From Candidatus Omnitrophota bacterium (GTDB taxonomy: Bacteria > Omnitrophota > Gorgyraeia > Gygaellales > Profunditerraquicolaceae): a DNA stretch of 64,000 nt. The stretch spans positions 204,772 through 268,771 of the forward strand of contig JAQUOD010000002.1 of NCBI GenBank assembly GCA_028717245.1. Reading direction: 5' to 3'. The notes under the pieces were generated by a model. The model was not told the DNA's origin. It searched no databases and saw nothing but the letters and a program-made list of their open reading frames with translations. The number at the start of each line of letters is the position of its first letter. The stretch's first letter is position 1. Positions 6,001 through 49,762 of the stretch are shown in pieces. A program made the translations under genes and the position numbers.

Positions 6001-9000
6001 CTTCGATGCCAATCCTTATCATTTACCGGGAAAATGCGATATTACCGTAGGTGTAGATTTTACCTCTTTGGTAGAAACCGGCGAAAATGCGGGATTGAAA
6101 TTAAAATTCTATGGTGTTCAGGGGAATCTTGAGTCAGGGATAACCAATTTGTCTCATGATGAGGAATCGAAGAGCAGGATAGTAGCCCGCCGCCTTAAAA
6201 GAGAGTACCCTCAGGCGAAGGCTCCTGAAGGTTTGCAAGAGGGAATAAGAGGCCAGGTCGAAGATGACATAAGGAGTTTTAAAAAAGATTTTCTTGGTGG
6301 CAATAGCGTTAAAATGCTAATACAGCAGAAAGAAGGCACTGATGAACAGTATGAATACAAGATACCTTCCGTAGTATCTCTTGAAGAAATGAGTTTATTC
6401 GCCAGGAGAAAAATCCCGGCCAAGCAAAGGCCTTTATTCCTTGAGCCGCGGATTAACGCCGCGATATTTATCGATGATTTTTGTAATTTAGGTTTACCAG
6501 AAAAAATAGACGCAGACGTTTTAGTTAAAGCTATCCGCGCATCCGGCATATTGCTGATGCCAGATAATAAAGACAATAAAAAATTTATTAAGAAAGAACG
6601 CTTTGAACCTTACGAGTTTGCTTCAAATTCCTATCCAGCTTATCACTGGTTAGTTTTTGGAGGGCAATTGGAAGCTTGCATTGCAAATCAGGCGAGAGAG
6701 ATTATATCAGGGGTTAGCGAATGCCCTGCTAACACTAAAATGTGGATTACATTACCATTGAATGCCATCGGATGTTTTTCTGGTAGAGACGAAAGAAAGT
6801 ATGGTTTACCGAGATATTTAGCAAAGTACCTTGTAAAGGAATATAGTTCATTTGCCGAAGGCTTACGGCCAATAAAGGAACCTTATACGCAAATTGATAC
6901 TAAAGACGTAGAAATTAATTTCGGGGATTGGGCAATAGTAGAATTTGATCCATACTCTAATGCGTCGATTTTTCAAGAGAATATAGGGTTAACCATATTA
7001 GAGAACGGCCGAGAACTGTGTTGTATTAAACCTGATGGCCGAAGAATGGTAGTACTTAATTTTATCTCTAAAAAACCAGAAAATGTATTCAGTTTATTGC
7101 AACAGAGTAGCGCAATCAAACAAGCCGGACAAAAAGAGAGCATATCAGGAAATAACACCCTGCCGCAAGGCACGATTAACAAAAAAACCCTTAACCCTGC
7201 CTTAGGCCCCGGAACATATGATCCTCGAGATCTGGCAACTCTTCAGGGGCAAAACAGTAATTCTGGAAAAACAGGGTCAGATTCAATTTTTTCCTATATT
7301 CTCGCCCATGATTTTATGAGCCCTAATAAAGTGGGGTATATTCAGGCAATAAGAGCTATGTTACCGGTAAAGAATCAAAGGAGGAGGTGCCTTTATATTG
7401 CCTTAGGCGGAGATTATTCAACCAGCCAAATGGTATCGCAGGCCCTAGAAACTATTTGTGTGGATAGGCTTCCTTTTGAGCCTTTAATAACACTATCTAA
7501 AGAAGAGGCGGATTTATATAAAGCCGTGTATATCAAAGACAGGTATTATGCGAATTTTGCTTCTTCAGTCCAATCAGTTGAAGGCGCAGTATTAAGGCGC
7601 GTAGGCGCTAAAGAATATTTTCTTTGGGAATTGGAAATGATGGGAGCCCAAGATATAGAAATAAGTTTTGATACCGCCCTTAATGCCAATAAGATTAGTT
7701 TTATCCTCCCGGGCGAATCGATGCAAAAAAGCATAATTTATTTTAGTTTTGACGCCAGGAATATAGAAGCCTACCCTCAGGCTCTGCTCAACCTTATAAA
7801 AGAAGGATTAGATTCTTTTATTTTTAAAGCCAGCGACGGCGTGGTTTTACCTCTTCAGATCAAAGACATAATTACCAACTCCTTTGATCCGGAAGCTATG
7901 CTGTTTCTGGATAGCGAAGCTTCATTTAGCCACACTTATCTTGAAGAGATAGATGAGGCAAAAATGGGGCAAATCAGGAATTTTGAAAAAATGGGTTATG
8001 CCTTTGGATATGAAAAAGTTCGTTTATTAAGGCCTAAAAAGCCCGAAATCCCCTCCCTCCCCGCAGGTGGGATAGAGGTTGAGAAAAGAAAGACACGGCA
8101 GCATCATTCGAATGACATATATCAGGAACCGTCCCCGCTGCCGTCTCTGCTAGCTAAGAATAGAATAGAGGTTTACCTAGATGATATTGCCCCCAGATTT
8201 TTTAAATTAATGAGAGCTGAATTTTCAGATGATAACAGGCTTTGTCTTATTTCTTCCAGAATTACGGGTTTAGTCCTGGCAGATAAATTTGGGATTCCTA
8301 TAGATAACAAGAGCGCCAATAGGATGGAGGTAAGGTTATGCCCTTATTTTGATGATGGCGGGAAACGTTACCATCAGATGCTTATAATTTATCGCAATAA
8401 TAACCCATGGCTTTTTGTTTATCCTGTCCTGGGATTGTTCTATAGCGGCTTAGAAGGCAGGATAATCTGCAGGGATTATCAGAAATTAAGCGAGTACAAT
8501 TTTATGGACCAGGGAAGGACAAGCTGGGTTCTCGATGAGCAGTTACAACAAAGAATAGAAAGGGTAGCCCAAGAGATTGTAGGGGATGGAAATTTAGGCT
8601 ATGGCAGCATAGCGACAACACAGCTGGCACCTTTTGAGAAGATATCCAGGGCATTAAAAATAGAAAAACTGCTTAATGAAAACTTACGGCAGGAAGGATT
8701 AAATACTCCCATTAAACATGAAGGAACAAAGGGGCTTTTCTACGAATCGGATATTTCTGATGTGGTCAAGGCCTGTCAGGTAATAGGCCTTGAGGGTAAA
8801 AGAGGCATTGATTTAGGCGCAGGCGTTGGCCACGCAGTGTTTGCTATGGCAGTAGCCGGCCTTCGGGGAGTAGGCATAGAATGGGAAAACCATTTAATTG
8901 GTATTGGTAATGGCCTCTTAGATAACAAAGAATTGAAGAAACTCGTTGATACCAGCCGCGTTGACTTAAGGCAGGGCGATTTTATGCAGGAAGATTTAAG

Positions 9001-12000
9001 CCAATACGACATAATTTACTATTATTGGAATGGCGCAGGTTATGGCAATGAAAATAAAGCCCAGGATGCGCTTATGCAAAAGATTAAGCAAGAAATGAGG
9101 CCGGATACCCTGTTGATTATTTACAGAGGGCTTGATACGCTTTCCCTCCCGGGATTTGAAAGAAAAGATTACCCCGGAATTCCCGAGACGGTGAGAGTAT
9201 TTAGGAAAGCCGAGGATATACGCAGCGATTTAGATAGCCCTGATGCAGAAATTAGAAGCAAAGCCATAAGTACTTTGCTGCGCTCAGACGAATACACGGA
9301 TAAAGAAAAGACACTTTTATTATTAAAAAGAGTTATGCAGGACGATGATAAATCAGTACGCACAGAAGCAAGAAGGGCGCTTACTATTCTCTGGTATGTA
9401 ATTGAAGGAAGGCCGAATAATAATTTTGCTGAAGTCCTGCAAGATGTGGGGCAGGGGCTTGCAAAACCAGAACGCGAAACTTTATTAGATATTCTGGTAA
9501 ATTCATTCCTTAACCGGGAAAGCCGCTATGCGCTTAACCGCTTTTGTTTGGATACATTTATGAAAGAGAATCCTAAAGTAAAGATTAATATCGACGAACG
9601 AATTCTGGAAGCAGACAATGTTGCCCCATATCTTATAACCATTGCCGGGCAGCTTTCCGGAATAAATCAGGAGAGCCTGAATTTAGAAATTATATTTTTG
9701 GATAACGTAAATGCAATTGAGAACAGGATTATGGAATCAGAGATTACCTTGCGTAAATATGGGGAGAACGGGCCAAGGGAGATGTTGATTAATATAGCCG
9801 CATTTAAAGAAAAAGCAGGCTATTCTTCGCAGGAGAACGTTATTTTCGCCAAAAAGATTTCCGAGGTATTGAATCAGTGCATTAATAAAGATAGCTGTGA
9901 TTTCGCTCCGATTGACAATACCAAAGCGGCATTGGAGGGTTTTGTGCCTTTGGATGAAAGCTTTCTCTGGAAGATAAGCAATTTATATTGGCAGTTAATG
10001 GGGAAGGATTCTTTTAAAGACCCGTACGCAGATACTTCGTTTTTCCCTGAATTACCCACGCACTTGAGAAAGGTACCCAACGGTTTATATGTTTATCACA
10101 GTTTTGCTTCTGCCTGCGCGGATAAATTCTCTAAGTATCTTTGCGAATTAGAAAATAGAGGCGATTTACCCGGGAGGATTATTGTTCAAGAATGGGGCGT
10201 GGGGAATGCCGATTTTCCGGAAAAGTTCCTGGGCGCCCTAAAACGGCTAAGCGCAGAAAAAGTAAAACAGCAGGGAGGGACGGATTTTTACGGGAGGGTA
10301 ACTTATGTAATAGGCGATATATCCCTTAAGATGTTAGAGAATATACGGCAGGCAGAATGGTACCCCCAGCATAAAGAGAAGATAGAATTTTCCGTAATGG
10401 ATGCCGTAAACCCTCCCCAGGCTTATCGGGGCAGGACTCTATTATTGATAAATAGCTATCTCTATTGCGTATTGCCGGCAAAAGTGATTGCGAAGAAAGA
10501 GGGCCGTTTTTACGAGATGTGCGTAAGGGCGTATCTGAATAAAGACATACGTATTAAAACCCGGGAGGGAAAGGACGTTTCAGCCGAAGAATTCACAGAG
10601 ATGCTGGTAAAAAATGATATACAGGCGCTTTCAAAACTCAACCCGTCTTTCTGGTATGCGTTGAATTATGAAGAGGTATATAAAGAATTTGATCCTCGGA
10701 GTAATAGCTGGGGTGATTACATAGCATGGATAACGCAAGGTAAAGATAATTGCCGGTTCATAATTAATAATCAGGCGTTAGAGAGCTTAACAAAGTCGCT
10801 TGATTTATTAGATGAAAAAAGAGGGATGATTTGGATATTTGAATTGACTTCGCCGGATGCATTAAATAACCCCCTTGCCGGCCCGATGAGTTTTGGCCCT
10901 ACGCTGGCTACACCTGTAAATACATCCTTATTGGAATACGCAATTAATAAAAACCGCGGTTGGAAAATCTCGGTTTCTCCTTCAACTATGTTTTTGCCGG
11001 AAGATACGAAGCGCGCCCAAAAATATACCTATATTGAAGTAGAAAAGAACAAATCCCCGCATATAGATACAAAAAATACGGCCTTATGTTTCAATCCCTT
11101 CATATTTTCGCTTCTTATCCCTTCCCTTATGCCCCTTATTATATTTTTGGGCGTGGCGGTATTTCCCTCTGCTCCTTTCATACCCGCGTGGCTGCCTGTA
11201 ATCAAAACAATGGTTACTAGCGCTGTAGTAAAGATTCAAAATATAGTTAGTAAGATAAAGGATAGATTCATACAAATAAAGCCAGTCCTTTATTTAGATA
11301 TATTAATATTCTTTTTTACAATCGGCATATTTATTCCTCTCTATTTCTTCCGAGATAAGATAGGAGAATTAGGAGCCTATGGCTATTTTGTGGCGTTCTG
11401 TATCTCAATACTCACTAACCTGACGGTATTTTTCCCTGTTCCAGGCATTGTAGCAACAGGTGCTTTAGCAACTGTGTTTAACCCTTTTTGGATTGGTATC
11501 GTGGTTGGCATAGGGGCGACTATCGGACAGATTACAAGTTATGGTTTTGGTTATAGCGGTAAATCCATAATTAATGGAAATCGTATCTACCAAAAACTGA
11601 TGAATTGGATACAGGGTTTGCTAATATACAAAAAAATAAATAACTGGGTAGAGAAACGGCCAAACCTGTCTATTTTTATTAGTTACTTTTTTCCTATTCC
11701 GGGTGTATCTGATACTGTCGGAGCAATAGCCGGTAGCGCAAAGTACCCTTTTTGGAAATACTTTATCTTTTGTATGTTAGGCAATATCCCTAAACATATC
11801 TTTTATGCTTATTTTAGCGCCTGGGGATTAAATTTATTTTTCCCGGATATTTTTAAATTGGGTATCTCCGGAAATCCTTTAATCTCTTTACCTCTTCTGG
11901 CAATAGCAAACTTACCTATAATGGGATATGATGATTTTGAAGGAGAAGAAGGAGAAAACCACAGAAAGAGGCCAAAGAATAAAAAAAGAAGAGAGGAAGA

Positions 12001-15914: not shown

Positions 15915-17249
15915 ATGAAAAGGATTTGTTGCGCGTTTTTATTTGTTTTTTGTTCTTTTTTATGCCTCGCCGGTTGCGTGCCGCAGCAGTCGGATAAATA
16001 CCAAACCACCTTGACTGTCTGGCATTGGATGACCGACAGAGAAGAAGCCTTCCAGGAGTTGGCCAAAAGATATGAGGCTTCTTCCGGCGTAAAAGTAAAT
16101 TTTGAACTCTACGCGCCATCGGATGCCTACGCGCAGAAGGTGCGCGCTGCTGCCCAGGGGCAAAACCTTCCTGATATTTTTGGCGTGCTGGGCGAGACGC
16201 GGGATTTCGCGTCCTTTATAAAGGCGGGCCATGTCTTGGGCCTGACCTCCTATATGGATGCAGACAGCGCTAAATGGCGTAATACTTTTTTCAGTAAGGC
16301 CCTGGCAGTAAACGGATTCTCCGACGGTAACAGCTACGGCATCAAACCCGGCATTTACGGCGTACCCATAGATATTATGACCATCCAGATGGTCTATAAC
16401 AAGGATTTATTCAAGAAATTAGGGCTTAACCCCAATGCGCCTCCGGAAACTTTTGCGCAATTCCTGGAGATAGGAAAAAAGATATCCGCCACAAATCGTG
16501 GCGGATCGGGCGGAAAAGAGGCAAAGATGCAGGGCCTGGTTTCCGGGTGGGGAGAGATATGGATGATAGATTGTTTAGCAAACAATTACGCTTTTAATAT
16601 CATGGGCGAGGACAAGGTATTGGCCACCATAAAAGGTGAGATTCCCTATACCGATCCCGATTGGGTCAGGGTATTAACGCTTTTTAAGGAGATGCAGGAT
16701 TCGGGGGTTTTATATAACGGATTGGTGACCATGGCCAATAAGAACGCGGAGCAGTTATTTGCTAACGGAAGGGCGGTCTTTGCCTTTAACGGTTCATGGT
16801 GCGTAAATGTATATAAGTCCATGAATCCGCGCCTGGATTACGCCGCAATGCTCCTGCCAAAGGCCTCGGAAAAATTTCCGGTGAGTATCTGGGGAGGCGC
16901 CGGTTCTTCATTTATGGTAAGCGCTAAATCAAAAAATAAAGAAGAGGCAGTAAATTTTTTAAAATGGCTTACTGACCGCAGCCAACAGGCATATTTAGCG
17001 CAAACTACTTCCAACCCCCCGGCAAATAAAGAGGCGTTAAGTGAGATTCCTCCTGTCCTGGCGCAGTTTGCCGATGATATGGAGTACGCCACGCATCCGA
17101 ATACTTGGGGCGTATCCGAGTCACCCCAGGTTATAGAAACCTTTAATAGAGGGATACAGTCAATAATTATCGGCGAGAAGAGCCCCGAACAGGTAGCGCA
17201 GGAAACGCAGAAGATTAAAGAAAAAGAATTAGCAAAAAAGAAACGATGA
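15915..17249 (+). CDS. ABC transporter substrate-binding lipoprotein, carbohydrate (family 1 SBP)
   Basis: Lipobox LAGC after a hydrophobic signal; overall extracellular solute-binding protein pattern. ATG 15915 is preferred over the TTG at 15903 reported by the ORF track. Confidence 0.7.
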   Translation: MKRICCAFLFVFCSFLCLAGCVPQQSDKYQTTLTVWHWMTDREEAFQELAKRYEASSGVKVNFELYAPSDAYAQKVRAAAQGQNLPDIFGVLGETRDFASFIKAGHVLGLTSYMDADSAKWRNTFFSKALAVNGFSDGNSYGIKPGIYGVPIDIMTIQMVYNKDLFKKLGLNPNAPPETFAQFLEIGKKISATNRGGSGGKEAKMQGLVSGWGEIWMIDCLANNYAFNIMGEDKVLATIKGEIPYTDPDWVRVLTLFKEMQDSGVLYNGLVTMANKNAEQLFANGRAVFAFNGSWCVNVYKSMNPRLDYAAMLLPKASEKFPVSIWGGAGSSFMVSAKSKNKEEAVNFLKWLTDRSQQAYLAQTTSNPPANKEALSEIPPVLAQFADDMEYATHPNTWGVSESPQVIETFNRGIQSIIIGEKSPEQVAQETQKIKEKELAKKKR

Positions 17250-17276
17250 TTTCGTTATTGGGTTACTTGCGTTTTT

Positions 17277-17327
17277 GCGTTATAGCGTTCGAACGCAATA
17301 ACGCTATAACCCTATAACGCTATAACG
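17277..17327 (+). promoter_or_regulatory. 28-bp imperfect palindrome centred on GCGTTCGAACGC, plus three CTATAAC(G) direct repeats, between the SBP and permease genes
   Basis: GCGTTATAGCGTTCGAACGCAATAACGC is self-complementary except for one position per arm. It is followed by GCTATAAC CCTATAAC GCTATAAC immediately before the ATG at 17328. Confidence 0.4.
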
Positions 17328-20799: not shown

Positions 20800-23145
20800 A
20801 TGATAAGTTCAGTTTTAAGCTATAAGCTATCAGTTTTAAGCAAGAAAAAAAATATTTTGTTTCTTTTGTTGCTGTTTCTTACAGCTTACAGCTTACAGCT
20901 TACAGCTTACAGTTGTTTTGCTGAAGAGCTAAGTAACCCTTCTTCCGGCGAGCTCATCGTCAAGGCCTGGGAGGCGCACGGTAAAAGAGACACAGAGGCG
21001 ACTTTTAGATATACGCAGGAGTGTATTGATTTATATAAAGGAGAAGCCGATAAACAACAGGCAGCCTTAGGGGCGCTTCCTAAGAATAAAGAAGAAATCG
21101 GGCAGGTAGCGGTTTTAAATGACGTAGCCACCGCTTATTTTATTCAGGCAGAAAGCCTGATGCGCCAGGAAAAGATTGGAGAAGCCAAGAAGATTTTTCA
21201 ATTAATTATTGATAAATATTCTTATGCCCAGGCGTGGGATCAGCGCGGCTGGTACTGGCAGGTCGCGCAGGCAGCAGGCCAGAGCATAAAGAAGATAGAG
21301 ATCGGCTCCATTGAGATAGATAAAAAAATCAAAATAAGCCAAATCTCTACTACTATAACCCTATACGATACGGGTAAGGAAGACTTCGTAGATTACGCCA
21401 AATACGGCGAGTTTAAAAATATCGGGACAAAGGATTACGCCTATGTAATAAAAGACCAGGAAGGTTTGAGCCAAGCAGTAGGCGAAGGCATCTATCCGAA
21501 TACTAGTTCAGTCAGGTGGGACCCGGAATTTAAAAAGGCGCGCGAGGAAAAAAGGCTGGAAGGCAACCACTGGGATTTTTTGCATTCCCCGGATTTGGAA
21601 GCTGCTTTTTTAAAATGGGCCACTACTTCTGAGCCGATGGGGATAAAGTTATTTTATACCGGCATTATCTTAGAAAAGGCAGGCCTGATAAAACACGCCA
21701 TTAAATGCTATTATGCTATTGTGGTGCATTTTCCGGGCAGTACCGGCTGGACTTATTGGCATACGCCCTGGTCAGTGGGGCAGGCGGCAATCTCCAAAAT
21801 AAATTTTCTCCTGCGCACCCAATCCAATTTAGGCTATAAGCTTGTGGATGCGGATATCCGCATCATTAACGGATACGATAATGATATCTCTAACGATATC
21901 GTGATTACCAATCCGGGCAGGTTTGAAAAGGTCAATTTTTTAGAGAAATTCAAACCCAAAACATTGCCCGCAGGGGCAAAGAATATCAAGCGGCGCCTGG
22001 GAGAAGGCAAAGTGCACCTGGTCCAATATGAAAACGGAGACTGGCAGCTTATGGTGAATAATAAGCCCTATATAATTAAAGGTATTACCTACGCCCCGAC
22101 AAAAGTAGGCGAGTCTCCCGATGAAGGGACAATGACCAACTGGATGGAAGACGATTTTAACCAAAACGGCAAAATCGACGGGCCTTATGACGCCTTTGTG
22201 GACAAAAACAGGAATAACCTGCAGGATGCAAATGAGCCGAGCGTCGGAGATTTTTATCTCATGAAGGAAATGGGTGTAAATACTATCCGGCTCTACCAGC
22301 AGCCTTTTAAGGTAAATAAAGAGCTGCTGCGTGAACTTTATCAGAATTACGGTATTATGGTGATTATGGGAGATTTTTTAGGTAAATATGCCTTAGGTTC
22401 CGGGGCGAGCTGGTATCCGGGTACGGATTATAATAACGAAGAACACAGAAAAAATATGTTGGAATCCGTCATCAAGATGGTTTTGGAATTTAAGGATGAA
22501 CCATACGTTCTGTTCTGGTTATTAGGTAATGAGAATGTCTATGGGTTTGCCTGTAATGCCAATACCGAGCCGGATGCCTTTTTTAAATTTGCCAATGAAG
22601 TAGCCAAACAAATCAAGGCGATTGACCCTGAGCATCCGGTAGCTATCTGTAGCGGCGATACCTTATTTTTAGATAAATTCGGCAAGAATTCATGCGATAT
22701 TGATATCTTCGGCACCAATGCCTACCGGGGCGAATATGGTTTTGGTTTTATCTGGAAACAGGTAAAAGAAGAGGCGGATAAAGCGGTATTTATTACGGAA
22801 TTCGGCTGCCCGGCTCATGCTGAGAGTAAAGCCTTAGACAAAGCGGAATTTTTGCAGGCGCGATATCATCAGGGGGCCTGGGGCGATATAGAGCATAATA
22901 TGGCCTTTCAGCATGGCGCGGGAAATGCCTTAGGTGGCGTAGTCTTTGAATGGCTGGATGAATGGTGGAAGGCCTATGAGCCTTTTTTGCATGATACCAA
23001 AGGCCTCTTCACCGGCCCTTTTCCCGACGGATTTATGCATGAGGAGTGGCTGGGTTTGAGCGGCCAGGGCGACGGCAAGCTAAGCCCGTTCTTGCGGCAG
23101 TTACGCCAGTCATATTATACGTATAAGAAATTATGGAGGCGATAG
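20800..23145 (+). CDS. secreted clan GH-A (TIM-barrel) glycoside hydrolase-like protein with an N-terminal helical/TPR-like region
   Basis: Signal peptide. LLGNENVYG (NE acid/base) and FITEFGCP (nucleophile) occur at the spacing typical of GH2/GH5-type retaining hydrolases. Paralogous to 24489..25748. Confidence 0.55.
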   Translation: MISSVLSYKLSVLSKKKNILFLLLLFLTAYSLQLTAYSCFAEELSNPSSGELIVKAWEAHGKRDTEATFRYTQECIDLYKGEADKQQAALGALPKNKEEIGQVAVLNDVATAYFIQAESLMRQEKIGEAKKIFQLIIDKYSYAQAWDQRGWYWQVAQAAGQSIKKIEIGSIEIDKKIKISQISTTITLYDTGKEDFVDYAKYGEFKNIGTKDYAYVIKDQEGLSQAVGEGIYPNTSSVRWDPEFKKAREEKRLEGNHWDFLHSPDLEAAFLKWATTSEPMGIKLFYTGIILEKAGLIKHAIKCYYAIVVHFPGSTGWTYWHTPWSVGQAAISKINFLLRTQSNLGYKLVDADIRIINGYDNDISNDIVITNPGRFEKVNFLEKFKPKTLPAGAKNIKRRLGEGKVHLVQYENGDWQLMVNNKPYIIKGITYAPTKVGESPDEGTMTNWMEDDFNQNGKIDGPYDAFVDKNRNNLQDANEPSVGDFYLMKEMGVNTIRLYQQPFKVNKELLRELYQNYGIMVIMGDFLGKYALGSGASWYPGTDYNNEEHRKNMLESVIKMVLEFKDEPYVLFWLLGNENVYGFACNANTEPDAFFKFANEVAKQIKAIDPEHPVAICSGDTLFLDKFGKNSCDIDIFGTNAYRGEYGFGFIWKQVKEEADKAVFITEFGCPAHAESKALDKAEFLQARYHQGAWGDIEHNMAFQHGAGNALGGVVFEWLDEWWKAYEPFLHDTKGLFTGPFPDGFMHEEWLGLSGQGDGKLSPFLRQLRQSYYTYKKLWRR
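20878..20912 (+). repeat. perfect (CTTACAG)x5 heptanucleotide tract inside the signal-peptide coding region
   Basis: Five exact 7-nt units at 20878-20912, encoding LTAYSLQLTAYS. Confidence 0.9.
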
Positions 23146-24407: not shown

Positions 24408-24484
24408 TAGGGACGGTTCTCAAGCCAAAGCAAGAAGTGTCCCCATAAGGGGACACTTCTCCGATTGGACTAAGAACCGTCCCT
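24408..24484. repeat. REP family B doublet (B1): ~77-bp long palindrome
   Basis: TAGGGACGGTTCTCAAGCCAAAGCAAGAAGTGTCCCC-ATAA-GGGGACACTTCTCCGATTGGACTAAGAACCGTCCCT; arms of about 36 bp. Confidence 0.8.
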
Positions 24485-24488
24485 CTAT

Positions 24489-25748
24489 ATGCAGTATGCA
24501 GTGAAGAAATTAAACGCTACATTCATTATTGCCGTATTTTTTTTGGTCTTAACGGCTATATCCTGTGCTCCGGCTAATAGGCCGAGCGTCTATATTCAAA
24601 AACTCAAAAATAGCCGTTACCAGTTAATGGTAGAGCGTAAGCCCTATGTGGTCAGAGGCGTCTGTTATAATCCTATCCCCATCGGAGCGAACCACGAATA
24701 CGATTGGTGGTCAGACTCCAATAAACCTTGGCTTATAGACGGAAAATTAATGCAGGAGATGGGCGCGAATACTGTCAGGCTCTATCAGGTCCATGAGAAT
24801 GCCGAAGAGGTCAAGACGGTCATCCGCGATTTATACGAACGTTACGGTATCCGCACTATTCTCGGGCATTGGCTGGGTTTTTGGGAATATCCCTGCCCGC
24901 TTTACGCGGATAAAGGCTTCCAGGATAGGATAAAGGGAGAGGTCCTGGCTATGGTTTCTACATACAAGGATGAGCCGGGCCTGCTCTTATGGATTCTGGG
25001 TAATGAAAATAATTATTCCTGTTGGGGCAGGGTTAATCCCTGGTCGGATGATGGAATAGACAAGGAGCCTGACCCGCAGAAAAAATGCCTCATGCGCGCC
25101 GATATTTATTATTCTTTTGTGAACGAGTTGGCAAAAGAGATACACAAGATAGACCCAGAGCATCCGGTGGCGCTGGGTAACGGAGAATTAATAGGTTTGG
25201 ATATTGCCAACAAAGCATGCCCGGATATAGACCTGGTTGCCTGCATTATTTACCGGGGCAAGACCTTTGGTAATCTTTTCCAGTCTTTGAAGTTATCCTT
25301 TGATAAGCCGATATTGTTATCGGAGATCGGCGCAGACAGTTACAATGCCCACAAAAATGTAGAGGACCAGAACATGCAGGCCTTCTTCTTAGAATCGCAG
25401 TGGCGCCAGATTTATGAAAACTTAGCCCGGAATAAAAAAGGCGCGGGCAATTGTTTAGGAGGCGCAATCTTTGAATGGACAGACGAGTGGTGGAAACATA
25501 ATGAAGGCGACCCCGAAGGCTGGAAGATGCATAATACCGAAGCCGGCTGGTCCAGCGGCAGTTATTATTTTGATATACAGGCGCCCAATAATATGAATAT
25601 GAACGAAGAGTATTTCGGTATTGTGGCCCTCTCGCAGGACTTAGAGGGCGGCATCGATAAGCGTATCCCCAAAAAAAGCTATTATGTCATCAGGGAGTTC
25701 TGGAAGAATCCCGTTGAGAAGCCAAAAGCCAAAAATAAAAAGCCGTAA
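24489..25748 (+). CDS. secreted clan GH-A glycoside hydrolase-like protein (paralog of the 20800 gene catalytic region)
   Basis: LLWILGNENNYS and LLSEIGADS motifs, with AIFEWTDEWWKHNEG matching VVFEWLDEWWKAYE in the paralog. Confidence 0.55.
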   Translation: MQYAVKKLNATFIIAVFFLVLTAISCAPANRPSVYIQKLKNSRYQLMVERKPYVVRGVCYNPIPIGANHEYDWWSDSNKPWLIDGKLMQEMGANTVRLYQVHENAEEVKTVIRDLYERYGIRTILGHWLGFWEYPCPLYADKGFQDRIKGEVLAMVSTYKDEPGLLLWILGNENNYSCWGRVNPWSDDGIDKEPDPQKKCLMRADIYYSFVNELAKEIHKIDPEHPVALGNGELIGLDIANKACPDIDLVACIIYRGKTFGNLFQSLKLSFDKPILLSEIGADSYNAHKNVEDQNMQAFFLESQWRQIYENLARNKKGAGNCLGGAIFEWTDEWWKHNEGDPEGWKMHNTEAGWSSGSYYFDIQAPNNMNMNEEYFGIVALSQDLEGGIDKRIPKKSYYVIREFWKNPVEKPKAKNKKP

Positions 25749-25787
25749 GCTATAAGTCCTAAGCTTTAGGCCGAAAAGGAAAAAAGA

Positions 25788-27410
25788 ATGAGAAAAATAA
25801 AATATAAACTTATCAAAGCATTTTTGATATTTATTTTTGCTTACAGCTTACAGCTTACAGCTTACAGCTTATTCGCCCAGGACGCCGATAAAACAGCCGC
25901 GCTTATGCAACAGATTATTGAAGTGAAAACAAACACGGATTTATACGCGCCCTTTGAGGAATTAAAGAACTTATATTTTCAAGAGAATAAATATTCGGAA
26001 TTTATAGAATCCTTAGGCCCTTTACTTACGAAAAAAGAGGCCTCAGCGCCCTTCGTAAATTATTACACTGCCTTAAGCCGCTATTCCCAGCTTAAATATT
26101 TGGAAGAGACACAGAACTGGGACGAATATTTTAATAAAGGTAATACCTATAGGGATGAACTCAACTTAGGCCTGCAGAATACAATCGCTTCTACGAACGC
26201 TAAAGAAGCCTTGAATCTTTATGCTAAGCTTCTCTTGTGGCAGTTCCATAAGGACCAGCAGGATGTTTTTGCGGATGCCGCATTTACTGACTTATTGAAT
26301 ACCGCCTCGGAGTATGCCAAAGATACGCAAAACCCCAAGCCCATAAAAGATGTTGCGGATAAACTTTTAGCCTACGCGGAAAAAAACGAATCCAGGCAGT
26401 TGTACCGGCTTTATGTAGAGAAGTTAATCGCTTCGGTTAAGGAAGACAAGGAATTGGAGAATATTGCCTTAGGATTTTATCAGGAAGGTAATTTAGAGTT
26501 ATCCGAGGCCCTTTTTGATGCTTATATAGAGCGTATCAGTAAAGAATCTCCAAAAGATAGGGTCCTGTTGGCGCTGATAGATATTGCCCGGAAATTTTCC
26601 TATCGGGAGGATGGGACAAAAGATGCCGCTTACGCCGAGAAGATATTTGCCAAGATCGAGGAGATAGGCAAAAAGGATGCCTTTAGTGAAGAGCTGAAGT
26701 ATCTACGCGCTTTCAATGCGCAGACATTAAAGGAATACGCAAAGGCAAAAGATTTTTATCTGGATTTGCTGCAGCGTTATCCTAAGAGCGCTTATGCTGA
26801 TGAGGCGAATCTCAAGGCGGGCATTATCTCTACCTATATATTAAGGGATATAAAAGCAGGCAGGGATTATTTTAGCATATTGGTGCAGAAGGAGCCATTA
26901 GCCCCGGGGGGCATCTTGAGTTTATACCAATTAGGATTACTTAGCCAGTGGGAGAATGATTTAGAAAAGGCCAAGGGTTATTATCGTCAACTGCTTGAGA
27001 AAGCAGGCGAGAATTTCCCTGAGACCACGGCATTGGCTAGGGAGAGGCTGAAAGAGATAGAAGAGGCAAAGCCGTTGGAATATAATCTTAAGACGTTCTT
27101 AGACCTTTCCTTAAAAGACGAATATAAAATTTTCGATATGACCAAGCTGGATTTAAAGGCATCTTTGGCTAAAGCCAGGAAAGGCCAAGGCATAAACTTC
27201 AGCACTAGCACTTATGCTGGCGAAAGCGGCTGCATGCAGGTAGAAATACAATATCTCTGGTCAGGCGAGCTCGGGGCGACACAACCTGCTACGCAGGAGC
27301 AGGCATTTGATACTGCCTACAACCAGGCCGGCACTAAAATCATAAGTTTAGTCGTAGCTTCTCCTTCAGGCATTATAGACAGAGGCATCGTAATACTAGA
27401 CATCGATTAG
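25788..27410 (+). CDS. secreted TPR-repeat protein
   Basis: Signal peptide followed by helical repeat composition. Confidence 0.55.
   Translation: MRKIKYKLIKAFLIFIFAYSLQLTAYSLFAQDADKTAALMQQIIEVKTNTDLYAPFEELKNLYFQENKYSEFIESLGPLLTKKEASAPFVNYYTALSRYSQLKYLEETQNWDEYFNKGNTYRDELNLGLQNTIASTNAKEALNLYAKLLLWQFHKDQQDVFADAAFTDLLNTASEYAKDTQNPKPIKDVADKLLAYAEKNESRQLYRLYVEKLIASVKEDKELENIALGFYQEGNLELSEALFDAYIERISKESPKDRVLLALIDIARKFSYREDGTKDAAYAEKIFAKIEEIGKKDAFSEELKYLRAFNAQTLKEYAKAKDFYLDLLQRYPKSAYADEANLKAGIISTYILRDIKAGRDYFSILVQKEPLAPGGILSLYQLGLLSQWENDLEKAKGYYRQLLEKAGENFPETTALARERLKEIEEAKPLEYNLKTFLDLSLKDEYKIFDMTKLDLKASLAKARKGQGINFSTSTYAGESGCMQVEIQYLWSGELGATQPATQEQAFDTAYNQAGTKIISLVVASPSGIIDRGIVILDID
25840..25867 (+). 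repeat. perfect (CTTACAG)x4 heptanucleotide tract inside the signal-peptide coding region
   Basis: Four exact units plus a partial CTTA, encoding AYSLQLTAYSL. Same repeat as at 20878. Confidence 0.9.
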
Positions 27411-28080
27411 CACCAGGTGCAAATCTAATCGGGCACCTGGTGCGGAATCAATCTTGTACCTGTCCCTCCCGGATTAAAGAAGAAATAATTGATTGAGAAT
27501 CCCGTCATCCTTACCTAATACCCGTGCATTATAGCTATTCCACGGATATTCCGAAAGTTGTTTTACCAAACCCGCTTTTAATGGATTTAATTCTATATAG
27601 TTTATACATTCGATTAAATAGTTATCTTTAGTGATAATCATACTTTTGAATCTACCTTGCCAGAGATGGCCGACTTCCTCATATTTATTATTAAAATAGA
27701 GGGTGTAGGCCCTATTTAAATCGTGCATAAAACTAGATAGCAATAAATGGTCATCCATTTCGCCGAGTAGATGTACGTGGTTAGGCATGAGACAATAAGC
27801 ATATGCCCGGAAATTATGTTTTCGCTTGAATTTCTTTAAAAGTGAAAGATAAAAAAGATGATCCTCCCGGCATTTAAAGACTTCCCGTTTTTGGTTGCCC
27901 CTTGTTATTAAGTGATAGCAGGCATTTTTTATCAAAAGCCTCTTTACGTTACTCATTCCAATCACCTCCTTCTATTATAATAGACGCAGAGATACCGGTT
28001 TTCTAACAGAAAAATTATAAAAGGGACAGGTACAATCTTAAATTCGCACCAGGTGCCCGATTGAAATCGCACCAGGTGCG
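27409..28080 (-). mobile_element. RAYT-REP unit 1: RAYT gene bracketed by inverted REP family A copies (A3 27409-27466, A4 28021-28080)
   Basis: The reverse complement of A4 aligns with A3 (TCGGGCACCTGGTGCG.AAT..A..TTGTACCTGTCCCT). The RAYT sits between them. Confidence 0.8.
27474..27956 (-). CDS. REP-associated tyrosine transposase (RAYT; IS200/IS605-like Y1 HUH transposase fold)
   Basis: CYHLITRGNQ ... CLMPNHVHLL (HUH) ... GHLWQGRFKS ... YIELNPLKAG (catalytic Tyr + NP). ATG at 27956 with RBS GGAGGTGAT is preferred over the GTG at 27965. Confidence 0.85.
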   Translation of the reverse strand: MSNVKRLLIKNACYHLITRGNQKREVFKCREDHLFYLSLLKKFKRKHNFRAYAYCLMPNHVHLLGEMDDHLLLSSFMHDLNRAYTLYFNNKYEEVGHLWQGRFKSMIITKDNYLIECINYIELNPLKAGLVKQLSEYPWNSYNARVLGKDDGILNQLFLL

Positions 28081-28093
28081 ATAATTCTTTCCT

Positions 28094-31717: not shown

Positions 31718-34030
31718 ATGGAGGATAAAATGACGCTGCCACTTTCGGAGAATGCCTTAAAGGTATTGGAGAAAAGATACCTTAGTAAAGACGAAGCGGG
31801 AAAGGCCATTGAGACGCCGCAAGGGATGTTTCGCCGCGTCGCCAAGGCCATTGCCGCGGCAGATAAATCTTACGGCAAAAAAGAAGAAGAGGTAGAGGCC
31901 CTTGAGGAATCTTTTTACCGTATTATGGCAGCACTGGAATTTATCCCCAATTCACCTTGTTTAATGAATGCGGGAAAGGAATTAGGGCAATTAAGCGCTT
32001 GCTTTGTTTTGCCTATTGAAGACTCAATGGATTCTATTTTTGAAAGCCTTAAGGCGACGGCCATGATACACAAGTCAGGAGGCGGGACAGGGTTTTCTTT
32101 TTCGCGGCTGCGCCCGAAAAATTCGGTAGTAAGGACAACAGGGGGGATTGCATCCGGGCCAGTTTCCTTTATGAAGGTTTATGACGCGGCAACTGAAGCA
32201 GTGAAACAAGGGGGTAGCCGTCGCGGAGCGAATATGGGAATCCTGAGGGTGGACCATCCAGATATCCTGGAATTCATTACCTGCAAGGAAAACGATAAAC
32301 ACATAAATAACTTCAATATCTCGGTCAATATCACCGAAGATTTTATGAAGAAATTGGAAAAGGGCGAAGATTATGACCTGGTTGATCCTCGCACGCAAGA
32401 AGTAGTAAAGCGCATTAATACCAAAGATGTATTTGAGCTGATCGTCAAGCAGGCGCATAAGAACGGAGAACCGGGGGTTGTTTTTATCGACCGGATGAAT
32501 GATTTTAATCCCACGCCAAAATTAGGAAGGTTTGAGTCGACCAATCCCTGCGGTGAACAGAATTTACTTCCTTATGAAAGCTGCGATTTGGGTTCCATAA
32601 ATTTATCCGTCATGCATAAAAAGGTGGAAGGCCGTTTTGAAATTGATTGGGAGAGGTTAAAGTCAGTCACACATCTATCAGTACATTTCCTGGACAACCT
32701 CATTGATGTAAATAAGTTCCCCCTTCAGCAGATTGAAAAGGCCACAAGGCTTACGCGTAAAATAGGCCTTGGGGTTATGGGCTGGGCAAGCCTGTTGATA
32801 CGTTTAAATATCCCTTATAACAGCGACGAGGCAGTTGCCCTAGGCGAAAAGGTCATGTCATTTATTTTAAACGAGGCAACCAAGAAGTCGCTGGAATTAG
32901 GTAAGAGTAAAGGACTTTTTCCTGCCTTTAAGGGGAGTATTTACGATAAAAAAGAAGGCGTGTTGAGGGTGCGTAACGCCACCCTCACCACTATTGCTCC
33001 CACAGGTACAATAAGCATAATCGCCGGGCCCTGTTCGTCTGGCATCGAGCCGCTCTTTGCCATATCTTATTACCGTAACGTAATGGATAATGATAAATTA
33101 GTTGAGGTTGACCCCTTATTTGAAGAGATTGCCAAAACACGGGGTTTTTACAGCCGCGAACTGATGGAGAAGATTGCCGAGAAATCCTCCCTCCAGGGTA
33201 TTGAAGGGATTCCCGAAGACGTAAAGAGGATTTTTGTCACGGCGCATGACATCTCTCCTGAATGGCATGTACGCATGCAGGCGGCATTTCAGAAATACGT
33301 GCATAATGCCACCTCCAAGACCATAAACTTTCCTCACGAAGCAAAGGCAGAAGAAGTAAAAAAGGCATATCTTTTAGCTTATGAGTTGGGCTGCAAAGGC
33401 ATAACCATTTACAGGGACAAGAGCCGCGAGGAACAGGTCTTGAATGTCGGCCAAGCGACAGAAAAGCCGCAACAGCAATTGAAAGAGCTCAAAAAAGAGA
33501 TTGCCCCCCGGCCGCGCCCGGAAGTGATCATGGGCACGACTACCAAAGTGGCTACGGGCTGCGGTAACCTCTATGTGACCATAAACAGCGACGAGACTGG
33601 TGCGCCTTTTGAACTTTTTACGCAGATGGGTAAGGCCGGCGGTTGCGCCGCCAGCCAGCTTGAGGCTATCGGCCGTTTAGTTTCCCTGGGTTTTCGTTCC
33701 GGCATTGAAGTAAAAGCTATTATCGAGCAGTTACGTAATATCCGTTGTCCCTCGCCTTCCTGGGAAAAGGGGCAGCGTATATTTTCCTGCGCGGACGCTA
33801 TCGCCCGCGTAGTGGAGAAGAGGCTATTGAACGGCGTGGCGGATATTCCTGTTCCTTTAGAAGAGGCCGCGAATATCGCTATGAAACATTCCCACCATGA
33901 TGAGATTACGGCCTCCGATGATTTCAGCCTGCACGGAGATATCGTTGGCGTCTGCCCTGATTGCGGAGGCGCGCTGCGTCATGAAGAGGGCTGTGTTAAA
34001 TGCCATGCCTGCGGATTTTCGAAGTGTTGA
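31718..34030 (+). CDS. nrdJ: ribonucleoside-diphosphate/triphosphate reductase, class II (adenosylcobalamin-dependent), with C-terminal Cys4 zinc ribbon
   Basis: NPCGEQ active-site thiol motif, ESCDLGSINL, and C-terminal CPDCGG...CVKCHACG. Confidence 0.8.
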   Translation: MEDKMTLPLSENALKVLEKRYLSKDEAGKAIETPQGMFRRVAKAIAAADKSYGKKEEEVEALEESFYRIMAALEFIPNSPCLMNAGKELGQLSACFVLPIEDSMDSIFESLKATAMIHKSGGGTGFSFSRLRPKNSVVRTTGGIASGPVSFMKVYDAATEAVKQGGSRRGANMGILRVDHPDILEFITCKENDKHINNFNISVNITEDFMKKLEKGEDYDLVDPRTQEVVKRINTKDVFELIVKQAHKNGEPGVVFIDRMNDFNPTPKLGRFESTNPCGEQNLLPYESCDLGSINLSVMHKKVEGRFEIDWERLKSVTHLSVHFLDNLIDVNKFPLQQIEKATRLTRKIGLGVMGWASLLIRLNIPYNSDEAVALGEKVMSFILNEATKKSLELGKSKGLFPAFKGSIYDKKEGVLRVRNATLTTIAPTGTISIIAGPCSSGIEPLFAISYYRNVMDNDKLVEVDPLFEEIAKTRGFYSRELMEKIAEKSSLQGIEGIPEDVKRIFVTAHDISPEWHVRMQAAFQKYVHNATSKTINFPHEAKAEEVKKAYLLAYELGCKGITIYRDKSREEQVLNVGQATEKPQQQLKELKKEIAPRPRPEVIMGTTTKVATGCGNLYVTINSDETGAPFELFTQMGKAGGCAASQLEAIGRLVSLGFRSGIEVKAIIEQLRNIRCPSPSWEKGQRIFSCADAIARVVEKRLLNGVADIPVPLEEAANIAMKHSHHDEITASDDFSLHGDIVGVCPDCGGALRHEEGCVKCHACGFSKC

Positions 34031-34083
34031 TATAAAGCCGTAAGTCCTAAGCTGTAAGCTTAAAGCTTTTTAAGTTTACGAAT

Positions 34084-35367
34084 ATGAAGAAAATATTATA
34101 TATTGTTCTCGACGGCCTCGGCGATCTCCCGATTAAGGAGTTGGACAACAAGACCCCGCTTGAGGCGGCCTTAACGCCTAACCTTGACCGACTCACTCAA
34201 AAAGGCAGGACTGGGATTGTCTATCCGGTCGCCAAAGGCATTGCCCCGGAATCGGATATCGCGGTAATCAGCCTTTTGGGCTATGATGCCCGTAAATATT
34301 ATACAGGCAGGGGCCCCTTGGAGGCCTTTGCCGAGGGTTTAAGCATACAGGATGGCAATCTGGCGCTAAGGGTAAATTTCGCTACTGCCGCAGAAGACGG
34401 TAAAACCATCAAGGACCGACGGGTAGGGAGGAATTTGACTACAGAGGAGGCTACCAGTTTAGCTAAAGAGATAAATTCTAAAGTTACTCTATCCAGCGCT
34501 ACCTTTGAATTCAAGAATACCATCGGCCACCGGGGGATTTTAGTCATCAGGGGCGTTCGTTCTAAATTATCCGGATGGATTACCAATACTGACCCGGCAT
34601 ATGAGCGCGAGGGGGTATTCGGCATAGCCAAAGAAAAATTTGAAAATCTTGTCGCAGAGTCTCTTCCTATGCCGGGCTATGAAAATGTAAGCGAGGCAAA
34701 GGAAGCAGCCGCGTTGTTAAATGAATTTACGCAGAAATCTCACCCGGTGCTTAACGAATCGGGAGTGAATAAAAAAAGGATCTCCGAGAATAAACTCCCG
34801 GCCAATATCATATTATCCCGTGATGCCGGCGACCACCTTCCGCAATTCCCCAAGATAGAAGGCCTTTATAATATAAAATTCGGCTCTTTTGTGCAGATGC
34901 CGGTAGAAAAAGGCATTGCCCTTTTAACCGGAATAGAGGTGATAGATGTGCCTTCATCTAGCGGACACTTGGATGTGGATTATCCGGTCTGGGCTAAAGT
35001 AGCGCTGGATTCCATCAAAAAATATGGAGGTATCTACGTCCACATCAAGGGCCCTGATGAGCCGGCACACGACGGAGATTTTCAGAAAAAGAAAGAAATC
35101 ATCGAGGCAATCGATAAATTTTTCTTCGCTAATTTATTACCCAAGTTAGATATGGCCAACACGATTATCGCCGTTACCGCCGACCATTCTACTGTTTGTG
35201 CTATCAAGGCCCATTCCAGCGACCCTGTGCCGCTACTAATTTGCGGGGGCAATATCCCTGCCGATGGCAGCTTGAGTTTCTCGGAGAAGACAGCCCGGCT
35301 TGGTTCCATAGGGGAACTACGCGGCCAGGAAATTATACCCCTCCTTGTAAAATTCGCTCAAACTTAA
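34084..35367 (+). CDS. apgM: cofactor-independent phosphoglycerate mutase, archaeal type
   Basis: N-terminal VLDGLGD metal-binding motif and the overall aPGAM layout. Confidence 0.7.
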   Translation: MKKILYIVLDGLGDLPIKELDNKTPLEAALTPNLDRLTQKGRTGIVYPVAKGIAPESDIAVISLLGYDARKYYTGRGPLEAFAEGLSIQDGNLALRVNFATAAEDGKTIKDRRVGRNLTTEEATSLAKEINSKVTLSSATFEFKNTIGHRGILVIRGVRSKLSGWITNTDPAYEREGVFGIAKEKFENLVAESLPMPGYENVSEAKEAAALLNEFTQKSHPVLNESGVNKKRISENKLPANIILSRDAGDHLPQFPKIEGLYNIKFGSFVQMPVEKGIALLTGIEVIDVPSSSGHLDVDYPVWAKVALDSIKKYGGIYVHIKGPDEPAHDGDFQKKKEIIEAIDKFFFANLLPKLDMANTIIAVTADHSTVCAIKAHSSDPVPLLICGGNIPADGSLSFSEKTARLGSIGELRGQEIIPLLVKFAQT

Positions 35368-35369
35368 TC

Positions 35370-35989
35370 AGGGACGGTTCTCAAACTAACCTAAAAGTGT
35401 CCCCCTCCCGCAGAGATATTGTCTAGAGAAGAGGAATATCGTCTAAAAACAGACTATTTTTTAGCCTAAAAACATAGCTGCTCCAGCGATATCCGTTTAT
35501 GTTTGCAGTTATAGACGCCCTCAAAGGATTAGTTTCTATATAGTTTATACATGCTAAAAAATAACCATCTTTATGTATAATTTTACTTTTATATCTGTCC
35601 TGCCAGAGATGACCAACTGTTTTATATCTGTAATTGAAATATAAGGTATAGCTCAAATTTAAGCCACGCATAATCTTATTTAATAGGAACGGATTTTCAA
35701 CCTCGATAATAAGATGCACGTGGTTAGGCATTAAACAAAAACAATATAGTTTAAATTTATATCGTCTTTTGTATTTAATTAATATGTTTAAGTATTTTTC
35801 GTAATCTTGAGGGTTCCTAAAAACCGATTGTTTTTGATTACCCCTTGTGATAATATGATAACAGCTATTCTCTATAGTTATTCTTGCTGTTCGTGGCATA
35901 TTTCTCACCTCCCAATATAATAGACGCATAAAGTATAAATTTCTAACATAAAAAGGGGACACTTTTAACCGCAATTGAGAACCGTCCCT
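35370..35989 (-). mobile_element. RAYT-REP unit 2: RAYT gene bracketed by inverted REP family B half-elements (35370-35405 and 35955-35989)
   Basis: The reverse complement of the right arm, AGGGACGGTTCTCAATTGCGGTTAAAAGTGTCCCC, matches the left arm AGGGACGGTTCTCAAACTAACCTAAAAGTGTCCCC. Confidence 0.8.
35423..35899 (-). CDS. REP-associated tyrosine transposase (RAYT), second paralog
   Basis: CYHIITRGNQ ... CLMPNHVHLI ... GHLWQDRYKS ... YIETNPLRA. ATG at 35899 with RBS GGGAGGTGAG. The longer ORF-track start at 35974 would read through the REP arm. Confidence 0.85.
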   Translation of the reverse strand: MPRTARITIENSCYHIITRGNQKQSVFRNPQDYEKYLNILIKYKRRYKFKLYCFCLMPNHVHLIIEVENPFLLNKIMRGLNLSYTLYFNYRYKTVGHLWQDRYKSKIIHKDGYFLACINYIETNPLRASITANINGYRWSSYVFRLKNSLFLDDIPLL

Positions 35990-35997
35990 AATAGAAA

Positions 35998-49080: not shown

Positions 49081-49170
49081 TCATTGTGTCAAGTATCAAT
49101 GTATCAAAGAAAAAGCTTAAAAGATAACACTTTGACACTATGACACTTTGATACCCTGATACTATGTAAC
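49081..49170 (+). promoter_or_regulatory. operator-like array of inverted/direct GTGTCAA / ATCAAAG elements upstream of the Lrp/AsnC regulator gene
   Basis: GTGTCAAG at 49106 pairs with CTTTGACAC at 49143; ATCAAAG at 49124 pairs with CTTTGAT at 49157; TGACAC appears as a direct repeat. Confidence 0.35.
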
Positions 49171-49675: not shown

Positions 49676-49762
49676 TTTATTGAGTTTATAGAGTTCGTTG
49701 AGTTTGTTGAGTTTTGGGTTTAACTCAATAACACAATAAACTCAAGTAACGCAATAACGAAA

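Follow-up and report, generated by a model that had tools for sequence, protein, structure and literature searches.

Heptanucleotide arrays in signal-peptide coding DNA of a conserved Omnitrophota gene cluster

Heptamer repeats in bacteria and the locus studied here

Since 2007, heptanucleotides have been known as the most over-represented units among bacterial long simple sequence repeats (LSSRs), an excess put down to polymerase slippage (Mrazek 2007, as relayed by PMC4679880 and PMC4692102). They have been described almost only from intergenic DNA. Here we describe heptamers that lie systematically inside the translated signal peptides of a conserved gene cluster, in an uncultured and possibly host-dependent phylum. 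The locus is a stretch of 64,000 nucleotides (64 kb; the whole of it is called the window) from a Candidatus Omnitrophota bacterium (assembly GCA_028717245.1, contig JAQUOD010000002.1), and the element in question is a perfect array of the heptamer CTTACAG near the start of a gene for a secreted, TPR-like protein.

Several described systems share features with this array. In the Neisseria opa genes, a (CTCTT)n tract lies in the leader-peptide coding sequence and switches at about 1e-3 per generation, with both ON and OFF alleles common (PMC3745409). As in opa, the repeat here is a nontriplet simple sequence repeat (SSR) in a signal-peptide coding region, where a hydrophobic leader tolerates the repeat residues and a change of unit number shifts the frame. 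It differs in its unit of 7 rather than 5 nt, in its 4.7-5 units against the longer opa tracts and in having an inverted partner array; moreover, the coding arrays described here show neither OFF alleles nor copy-number polymorphism. The neuO gene of Escherichia coli K1 carries 3-53 copies of (AAGACTC)n and is OFF in 65.6% of 64 genomes (PMC13001214). It shares with our array the 7-nt unit, the 5' coding position, the translation of all three phases and a frame that is open at certain copy numbers only, but neuO encodes a cytoplasmic enzyme, its repeat lies outside any signal peptide, and the protein retains the domain that the repeat encodes.

In the 5' untranslated regions (5'UTRs) of Haemophilus influenzae hmw1A and hmw2A, an (ATCTTTC)n tract forms the arm of a hairpin that is cut by RNase III and is tied both to expression and to the dynamics of the SSR (PMC12721329). 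The likeness lies in a heptamer SSR serving as one arm of a long hairpin at the 5' mRNA end of a gene for a secreted protein, an arrangement found in the predicted folds at both arrays of the window. However, the hmw tract is non-coding, has at least 11 units and pairs with a non-repetitive G-rich arm, whereas the array here is coding, perfect and short and pairs with a degenerate array of its own family.

Finally, genome-specific heptamer arrays have been described as TAACTGA (Beggiatoaceae, cyanobacteria and Bacteroidetes), as the short tandemly repeated repetitive (STRR) sequences of cyanobacteria and as GGGAATC in Xanthomonas (PMC4679880, PMC4692102). Like ours, they have 2-6 copies and lie beside start codons, and some have been described as inverted pairs. 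The forward TAACTGA array gives stops in three frames and overlaps upstream stop codons, while its reverse is occasionally translated at protein ends as LSVISYQ (PMC4679880); similarly, in the heptamer family of the window the forward orientation gives TAA in all three frames, and the reverse orientation has no stops and is translatable. Those arrays are nevertheless overwhelmingly intergenic, with one dominant unit per genome, whereas the Omnitrophota arrays lie mostly in signal-peptide coding DNA, with units that vary by gene and species at a position conserved across orthologues.

What sets the present arrays apart from all these systems is the systematic placement in signal peptides, the conserved position occupied by species-specific units, the short and bounded copy number, the paired inverted arrays and the lack of ON/OFF polymorphism. 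Our literature searches found no description of the signal-peptide heptamer-array pattern, and a 2026 survey of 229 Omnitrophota genomes makes no mention of heptamers or hairpins.

The two arrays of the window and the genes that carry them lie as follows:

20800-23145, + strand: gene for a GH2_C/GH72-like TIM-barrel protein of 781 aa, assigned by domain matches
20800-20922, + strand: predicted signal peptide of the GH2-like protein (MISSVLSYKLSVLSKKKNILFLLLLFLTAYSLQLTAYSCFA, cleaved before EE), from an inferred start codon
20878-20912, + strand: perfect (CTTACAG)x5.0 array in the GH2-like signal peptide, read as LTAYSLQLTAYS
25788-27410, + strand: gene for a TPR-like or 'TolA-binding-like' secreted protein of 540 aa, conserved across Omnitrophota
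25788-25877, + strand: predicted Sec signal peptide of the TPR-like protein (MRKIKYKLIKAFLIFIFAYSLQLTAYSLFA, cleaved before QD), from its n-h-c layout and orthologue conservation
25839-25871, + strand: perfect heptanucleotide array (GCTTACA/CTTACAG)x4.7, encoding AYSLQLTAYSL of the TPR-like signal peptide and forming the 3' arm of a quasi-palindrome

The CTTACAG tract is a heptanucleotide microsatellite, or LSSR: both arrays of the window are head-to-tail runs of a unit within the 5-11-nt range, longer than expected by chance. At 25839-25871, Tandem Repeats Finder reports period 7, 4.7 copies and 100% matches. A first-pass annotation, made from the sequence of the window, had drawn attention to four units at 25840-25867, which are exact, and to the same repeat in a second secreted protein about 5 kb away. 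This is the 5.0-copy array at 20878-20912, 4,962 bp upstream on the same strand (the signal peptides of both proteins being predicted), and the two arrays have in common a 32-nt identical direct repeat. The annotation's view of a slippery, DNA-level repeat in the leader coding region is borne out as well, and the repeat is no product of chance: 100 dinucleotide-preserving shuffles give an expectation of 0.00 for the 14-mer CTTACAGCTTACAG, of which the window has 7 copies. Beyond these two arrays, the whole 64-kb window has no tandem run of period 4-12 with at least three exact copies.

Both arrays are in frame within their long open reading frames (ORFs) and are read in a common phase, in which all three phases of the unit are translated in turn to give LTAYSLQ. 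The peptides said to be identical are thus alike in phase, but agree at 12 of 13 residues (AYSLQLTAYSLFA in the TPR-like and AYSLQLTAYSCFA in the GH-like protein). The array spans codons 18-28 of the TPR-like gene and codons 27-38 of the GH-like gene, and in both predicted signal peptides it comes after the hydrophobic core and ahead of the A-x-A cleavage site. In the former it occupies the last third of a cleavable Sec signal peptide, directly 5' of the conserved A-x-A site. A promoter and terminator scan found neither a sigma-70-like site nor an intrinsic terminator at either array.

We assigned signal peptides by inspection of the n-h-c layout and cleavage motif rather than with a dedicated predictor such as SignalP. 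The TPR-like leader reads MRKIKYK, then AFLIFIFA..., then LFA with cleavage before QD, as expected of a substrate of the Sec pathway and signal peptidase I; across 33 orthologues A30 is invariant and Q31 is present in at least 90%. GH orthologues have E(D/E)xPSSG in common after the array. The TPR-like protein has 669 homologues at E<=1e-3, nearly all from Omnitrophota, and matches a hypothetical protein from a Candidatus Omnitrophica metagenome-assembled genome at 100% identity. Its label, also used by the first-pass annotation, agrees with the source-given names of homologues, but the Pfam TPR_6 match is sub-threshold (E=3.7e-4) and the assignment is weak. The cluster that holds the arrays is co-directional and of the sugar-utilisation type: it encodes a solute-binding protein, two permeases, an MFS transporter, the GH-like protein, two secreted proteins of unknown kind and the TPR-like protein, after which come genes for ROK and LacI-type regulators.

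Position and units of the arrays across Omnitrophota

We compared the window with 80 syntenic Omnitrophota loci from metagenomes, 710 kb in all. At the N-termini of TPR orthologues we found peptides with a periodicity of seven residues between the hydrophobic core and the conserved (F/Y)A/Q(D/E) cleavage site. These heptad peptides differ by lineage (SYELRVT, AICHMPY, AVSCQLS, LITHHSS, NCELRTA, LGTWYLV and others), and each is the product of a DNA heptamer with its three phases read in turn. The period predominates in the whole set: exact runs of at least three copies number 42 for period 7, 13 for period 4, 6 for period 8, 1 for period 6 and none for period 5 or periods 9-12, and imperfect arrays number 94 for period 7, 23 for period 8, 14 for period 6, 9 for period 5 and at most 2 for each longer period. 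Within the signal-peptide segment, 27 of 72 TPR orthologues have an array of at least three copies and the other 45 (~60%) have none; other periods give 0-2 in this segment, and a 100-nt control from the gene interior gives 0. Altogether 60 arrays use 38 distinct units, at 2.7-5.6 copies apiece.

Nearly all of the arrays are found at the 5' ends of three gene families (TPR-like, GH-like and a family of ~420 aa), all in frame with a long ORF. Going by heuristic gene calls, ORFs with a signal-peptide-like start have 11.8 arrays per 10 kb in their first 120 nt, against 1.45 for the same stretch of other ORFs; intergenic DNA has 1.2 and the interiors of ORFs have 0.10, so that signal-peptide DNA is about 10 times as dense in arrays as intergenic DNA and about 100 times as dense as ORF interiors. 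The conserved property is thus a 7-nt DNA period at that position, and no particular peptide. The arrays are an Omnitrophota-wide habit: short units of 7 nt (less often 8 nt), specific to species and gene and often in inverted pairs.

This pattern bears on a proposal of the first-pass annotation, that the repeat encodes a lineage-specific sorting motif. A peptide such as AYSLQLTAYS, recognised by a lineage-specific export or sorting machine for sorting or retention, would account for the 10 residues common to two secreted proteins of one cluster. However, the orthologue peptides at that position are unrelated, some of them charged, and the many units and the majority of orthologues without any array fit no such signal. 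Since the peptides are unrelated while the 7-nt period is conserved, we reject the sorting motif. The DNA is also 7-periodic and not merely 21-periodic, which selection on the peptide would not yield, and in many phyla there are non-coding arrays that 'encode' this very peptide. We regard this explanation as hardly credible.

Indeed, among GTDB representative genomes (CTTACAG)3 occurs at more than 120 loci in many phyla, including Pseudoalteromonas, Psychrosphaera, Halomonas, Geobacteraceae, Desulfobacterales, Flavobacteriia, Patescibacteria and Planctomycetota. These loci are mostly non-coding. Given the spread over many phyla, we rejected the idea that CTTACAG is specific to Omnitrophota. 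Outside the phylum the arrays lie mostly in short open frames or beside start codons, reach at least 19 copies and are often at contig ends; 24 of 96 have an inverted partner within 120 nt at z<-3. The annotation's proposed test, whether such tracts are enriched at the 5' ends of genes with signal peptides or spread at random, thus has a mixed outcome: the Omnitrophota arrays have their roughly 10-fold excess over intergenic DNA, while CTTACAG itself is widespread and mostly non-coding in other phyla. We also noticed that in unrelated phyla (CTTACAG)n often stops a few bases 5' of start codons (loci L001-L120, e.g., L013, L063, L109, L023 and L031); in three Desulfuromonadales/Geobacteraceae genomes the gene concerned is the same (MNLDNLSVVLVE...), and another such gene is rpsM-like.

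Turnover of the arrays is evident between close relatives. In two pairs of loci whose flanks are 92-95% identical (L159/L164 and L138/L141), alignment fails over everything between the upstream stop codon and the cleavage site, and the arrays differ. The unalignable 5'UTR and signal-peptide segments are:

L159 5922-6094 versus L164 1956-2116
L138 5228-5355 versus L141 5620-5747

Similarly, one cluster of proteins at least 90% identical contains two wholly unlike leaders (P0039 versus P0157) on a conserved mature protein. Signal peptides are thus wholly replaceable between strains at least 90% identical, which matters for annotation and secretome prediction in these genomes. Simple inversion was considered as the cause of the unalignable segments and rejected, because the segments of close relatives are not reverse complements. 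A single likeness was seen at the level of the arrays, the right-arm leader array of L159 (TTGGAGC) resembling the reverse complement of the left-arm 5'UTR array of L164 (AAAGCGC).

At shorter distances the coding arrays are stable. They are identical within 7 multi-sample clusters at >=90% identity, their unit number is unchanged between locus pairs that are 98.9-99.9% identical, and a search for in-frame (+/-3 unit) variants within 90% protein clusters found none. The unit-number variation that the first-pass annotation proposed to look for was not seen in coding arrays of these close relatives and was seen once elsewhere, as a 7-nt, single-unit indel in an intergenic (AAAAGTA)n array between loci 97% identical (L133 versus L136). 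Exact-protein look-ups with the TPR-like protein, the upstream 419-aa protein and P0001 found no second assembly of the source organism on record. Reading frames are equally stable: the leader is intact and in frame in all 78 TPR orthologues that have a 5' end, and none of ~55 coding arrays is out of frame.

These counts bear on the other proposal of the annotation, a mutable module that turns both genes ON and OFF. Such a contingency locus would gain or lose one unit by replication slippage and thereby switch the TPR-like and GH-like proteins stochastically. The analogy with opa (PMC3745409) and neuO (PMC13001214) is close in position, a nontriplet unit in the 5' coding region of secreted proteins; moreover, the nontriplet periods 7, 4 and 8 dominate while periods 6 and 9 are almost absent, the arrays are strongly enriched at 5' ends, and both the perfect in-frame arrays and the intergenic 7-nt indel between close relatives imply or exhibit slippage. 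A one-unit change in the coding arrays would shift the frame, yet no OFF allele is seen: with none of 78 orthologues and none of ~55 arrays out of frame, the probability of 0 in 55 would be 0.003 if 10% were OFF, and neuO is OFF in a majority of genomes. No unit variation appears in the assemblies of the 7 clusters or of the near-identical locus pairs, copy number is merely 2.7-5.6, and the TPR-like protein is broadly conserved phylum-wide. The switch is thus unsupported, and we consider a contingency locus unlikely. Pipelines that define a 'phasome' will nevertheless flag perfect nontriplet repeats at gene starts as phase-variable, an inference unsupported here.

Inverted partners of the arrays

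The first-pass annotation missed that upstream inverted copies form a hairpin with the array. The elements of the heptamer family concerned are:

25737-25776, + strand: 5' arm of the TPR-like gene, degenerate reverse-complement heptamers (GCCGTAA GCTATAA GTCCTAA GCTTTAG), 75% complementary to 25834-25873 (40 nt)
25791-25841, + strand: inner stem of the TPR-like gene, in which Lys-rich n-region codons (25791-25808) pair with Phe/Ile-rich h-region codons (25824-25841)
20811-20852, + strand: 5' arm of the GH gene, degenerate forward heptamers (AGTTTTA AGCTATA AGCTATC AGTTTTA AGC), 71% complementary to 20866-20907 (42 nt)
34033-34067, + strand: third degenerate forward array of the CTTACAG family (GCCGTAA GTCCTAA GCTGTAA GCTTAAA), with no coding partner array

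In the TPR-like gene the arms make up a quasi-palindrome of ~135 nt across the translation start, with the array as its 3' arm. The upstream 419-aa ORF has its stop codon (25746-25748) inside the 5' arm, which extends almost to a weak Shine-Dalgarno (SD) sequence; the symmetry centre coincides with the boundary of the n- and h-regions, and SD and AUG lie inside the fold. The 5' arm of the GH gene is translated as SVLSYKLSVLSKKK if the ATG at 20800 is used. The third array lies in a spacer, after the stop of ORF 31718-34030 and ahead of ORF 34084-35367. The five heptamer-family elements of the window align in register, with TAAG invariant every 7 nt. Predicted RNA folds have z=-3.2 for the TPR-like gene and z=-2.6 for the GH gene.

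Inverted pairs recur in other species, where many genes combine an array in the n-region or 5'UTR with a second in the h- or c-region. In 11 genes, the two arrays of the same gene are inverted complements beyond random pairing (permutation p=3.5e-4), whereas the control for similarity in direct orientation in the same genes gives p=0.9. With the duplex energies of random windows from the same locus as reference, 37 of 94 heptamer arrays (39%) and 15 of 23 octamer arrays have a partner at z<-3 no more than 120 nt away. Mismatches between the arms are mostly transitions, and those that would be G.U in the sense strand (9) are as many as those that would be C.A (9). The prevalence of transitions and the lack of strand bias in the wobble pairs fit a templated origin at the DNA level. 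Quasi-palindromes are reportedly subject to template-switch mutagenesis, in which imperfect inverted repeats are corrected towards complementarity during replication (work associated with Ripley and with the Lovett laboratory). The process is one of mutation and defines no family of sequences; if it acts here, it would explain complementary pairs without strand bias.

Alternatively, the pairing could serve in the mRNA. The hairpin may sequester the SD and AUG, and ribosomes that terminate on the upstream gene may open it, or RNase III may cut it. A selected cis-regulatory RNA hairpin would then hide the start of the TPR-like gene in its stem; the opening or cutting of the stem would couple or tune translation, with array length acting as a rheostat, as in the hmw1A 5'UTR. 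The enclosure of ribosome-binding site and start codon in a fold of z=-3.2, the upstream stop codon within the 5' arm, three further array hairpins of 8-9-nt units that abut start codons elsewhere in the window, the arm complementarity kept across species despite differing units, and the precedent of a heptamer SSR hairpin arm cut by RNase III (PMC12721329) all speak for such a role. In the ~420-aa family the sense strand folds at -58 and the antisense strand at -32 kcal/mol. This family alone had looked convincing, but over all genes there is no wobble strand bias, and the pairs of the GH family fold better in the antisense strand. About 60% of heptamer arrays are partnerless, among them those in the signal peptides of this gene's closest relatives; no Rfam family reaches its gathering threshold anywhere in the window; and inverted (CTTACAG)n arrays also occur in non-coding DNA of other phyla, which suggests a generic mutational origin. 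We consider the RNA hairpin as unlikely as the contingency locus. The inverted arrays are real and recurrent, and they look like DNA-level quasi-palindromes rather than helices optimised in mRNA.

The array pairs of the ~420-aa family lie inside the ORF, just after a conserved MRLSxxK start. There an n-region array (GCTACAG or GTCGCAG) pairs with an h-region array (GCTTGTG, encoding LVACGLW) at 7 of 7 positions when G.U is allowed. The window member of this family (24489-25748) has no array. The pairs are at:

L139 3089-3178
L179 4677-4766
L158 422-492
L173 1373-1466

Three hairpins of the window, with inverted arms made of tandem 8-9-nt units, lie in intercistronic spacers:

17249-17327: array hairpin ATTGCGTT/AACGCTAT
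49081-49151: array hairpin GTGTCAAG/ACACTTTG
49670-49758: array hairpin TATTGAGTT/AACTCAATA

They begin at or near the upstream stop codon and end 0-27 nt ahead of the next ATG, with no obvious SD; the z-scores of their RNA folds lie between -3.8 and -4.4 for the + strand and between -4.3 and -5.4 for the - strand.

Repeats in inverted and direct orientation might also mediate DNA rearrangement, either by inverting the segment with the start codon and h-region, which would destroy the leader, or by a crossover between the direct arrays that deletes or duplicates the block of GH, 382-aa and 419-aa genes in frame. The inverted arms do flank 13-57 nt, and the 32-nt identical direct arrays, 4,962 bp apart and in the same phase, would give an in-frame hybrid leader by crossover. 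However, the divergent 5' segments of close relatives are not reverse complements. No invertase or serine/tyrosine recombinase gene is adjacent, the nearby mobile genes being only Y1 transposases with unrelated palindromes, and the gene block is kept in all 80 syntenic loci. We consider rearrangement very improbable.

Origin and persistence of the arrays, and other features of the window

The reading that we prefer, on which we are evenly divided between belief and doubt, is that of a microsatellite produced by slippage and hairpin templating, which a peptide destined for cleavage tolerates as filler and which perhaps also has a cis-regulatory part to play as a hairpin. The arrays would arise and turn over by slipped-strand mispairing together with hairpin-templated (quasi-palindrome) copying, a process probably seeded by the complementarity of Lys and Phe codons in signal-peptide DNA. 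Because of the complementarity between AAR Lys codons and YTT Phe/Leu codons, DNA that encodes a leader peptide is quasi-palindromic by nature; together with templated correction, this would account for where the arrays lie as well as for inverted pairs that show no strand bias. They would persist there because the leader is permissive, being removed and having no need beyond rough hydrophobicity, and only in-frame states would survive. A slip of one unit would abolish the protein; the frameshift switch would thus be latent, and it is not seen in use.

Several points weigh against this reading. The density test depends on gene calls and signal-peptide calls that are both heuristic, and the clustering of arrays in three syntenic gene families leaves few independent genes. 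In L201 (65% aa identity) and L202 (59%), which hold the closest relatives of the window gene, the leader has an array of the GTTACGA type with no upstream partner, and the TGCCATA arrays likewise lack one, so the hairpin is not obligatory. Neutral, tolerated filler fails to explain the ~10-fold density over intergenic DNA, and also the in-frame rise of arrays of 4-5 units without frameshifted intermediates. Since the excess over intergenic DNA is poorly explained, a function, either as an RNA hairpin or as a low-rate frameshift switch, remains plausible.

A broader claim can be advanced only tentatively, and we lean against it: that Omnitrophota 'array hairpins', long quasi-palindromes with species-specific arms of 7-8-nt arrays over or next to the start codons of secreted-protein genes, are a new class of selected cis-element, or else the product of a hairpin-templated repeat generator that specifically targets leaders. 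In the former case they would couple translation or mRNA processing to a rapidly evolvable, frame-sensitive repeat, rewriting or gating signal peptides. In any case, the combination of unit turnover, conserved position and inverted partners makes the arrays a tractable system in which slippage bias, hairpin-templated mutation, RNA regulation and contingency switching can be separated.

The window also contains two genes for IS200-like Y1 transposases (Pfam Y1_Tnp):

27474-27965, - strand: ORF flanked by inverted palindromes of the GCACCAGGTGC type at 27410-27445 and 28045-28082
35423-35974, - strand: ORF flanked by palindromes of the GGGACGGTTCTCAA / GGGGACACTTTT type at 35372-35410 and 35955-35990

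Both have an arrangement like that of repetitive extragenic palindromic (REP) sequences and their associated tyrosine transposases (RAYT). The heptamer was considered as the REP sequence of these transposases (REP/RAYT, REPIN) and rejected, as both genes carry palindromes of their own and not the heptamer. Similar GGGGACACTTCT hairpins occur both in the window (24432-24461) and at 735-800 of the related locus L201.

Some TPR orthologues have, in their mature part, an in-frame, GC-rich palindromic insertion of ~48 nt (CCCGCC...GGCGGGATCCCGCC...GGCGGG) that encodes SRPxIKSEGGIPxEAGK. Its presence varies between loci 95-97% identical, and the window copy of the gene is without it. It is reminiscent of the in-frame palindromic elements of Rickettsia. 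The comparisons are:

L133 3391-3451 versus L136 4375-4387
P0133/P0134 versus P0094
also P0003, P0038, L124, L128 and L145

At the start of the window, an ORF of 4,824 aa spans 56-14530 on the + strand; Omnitrophota are reported to have very long proteins (bioRxiv 10.64898/2026.06.07.730766).

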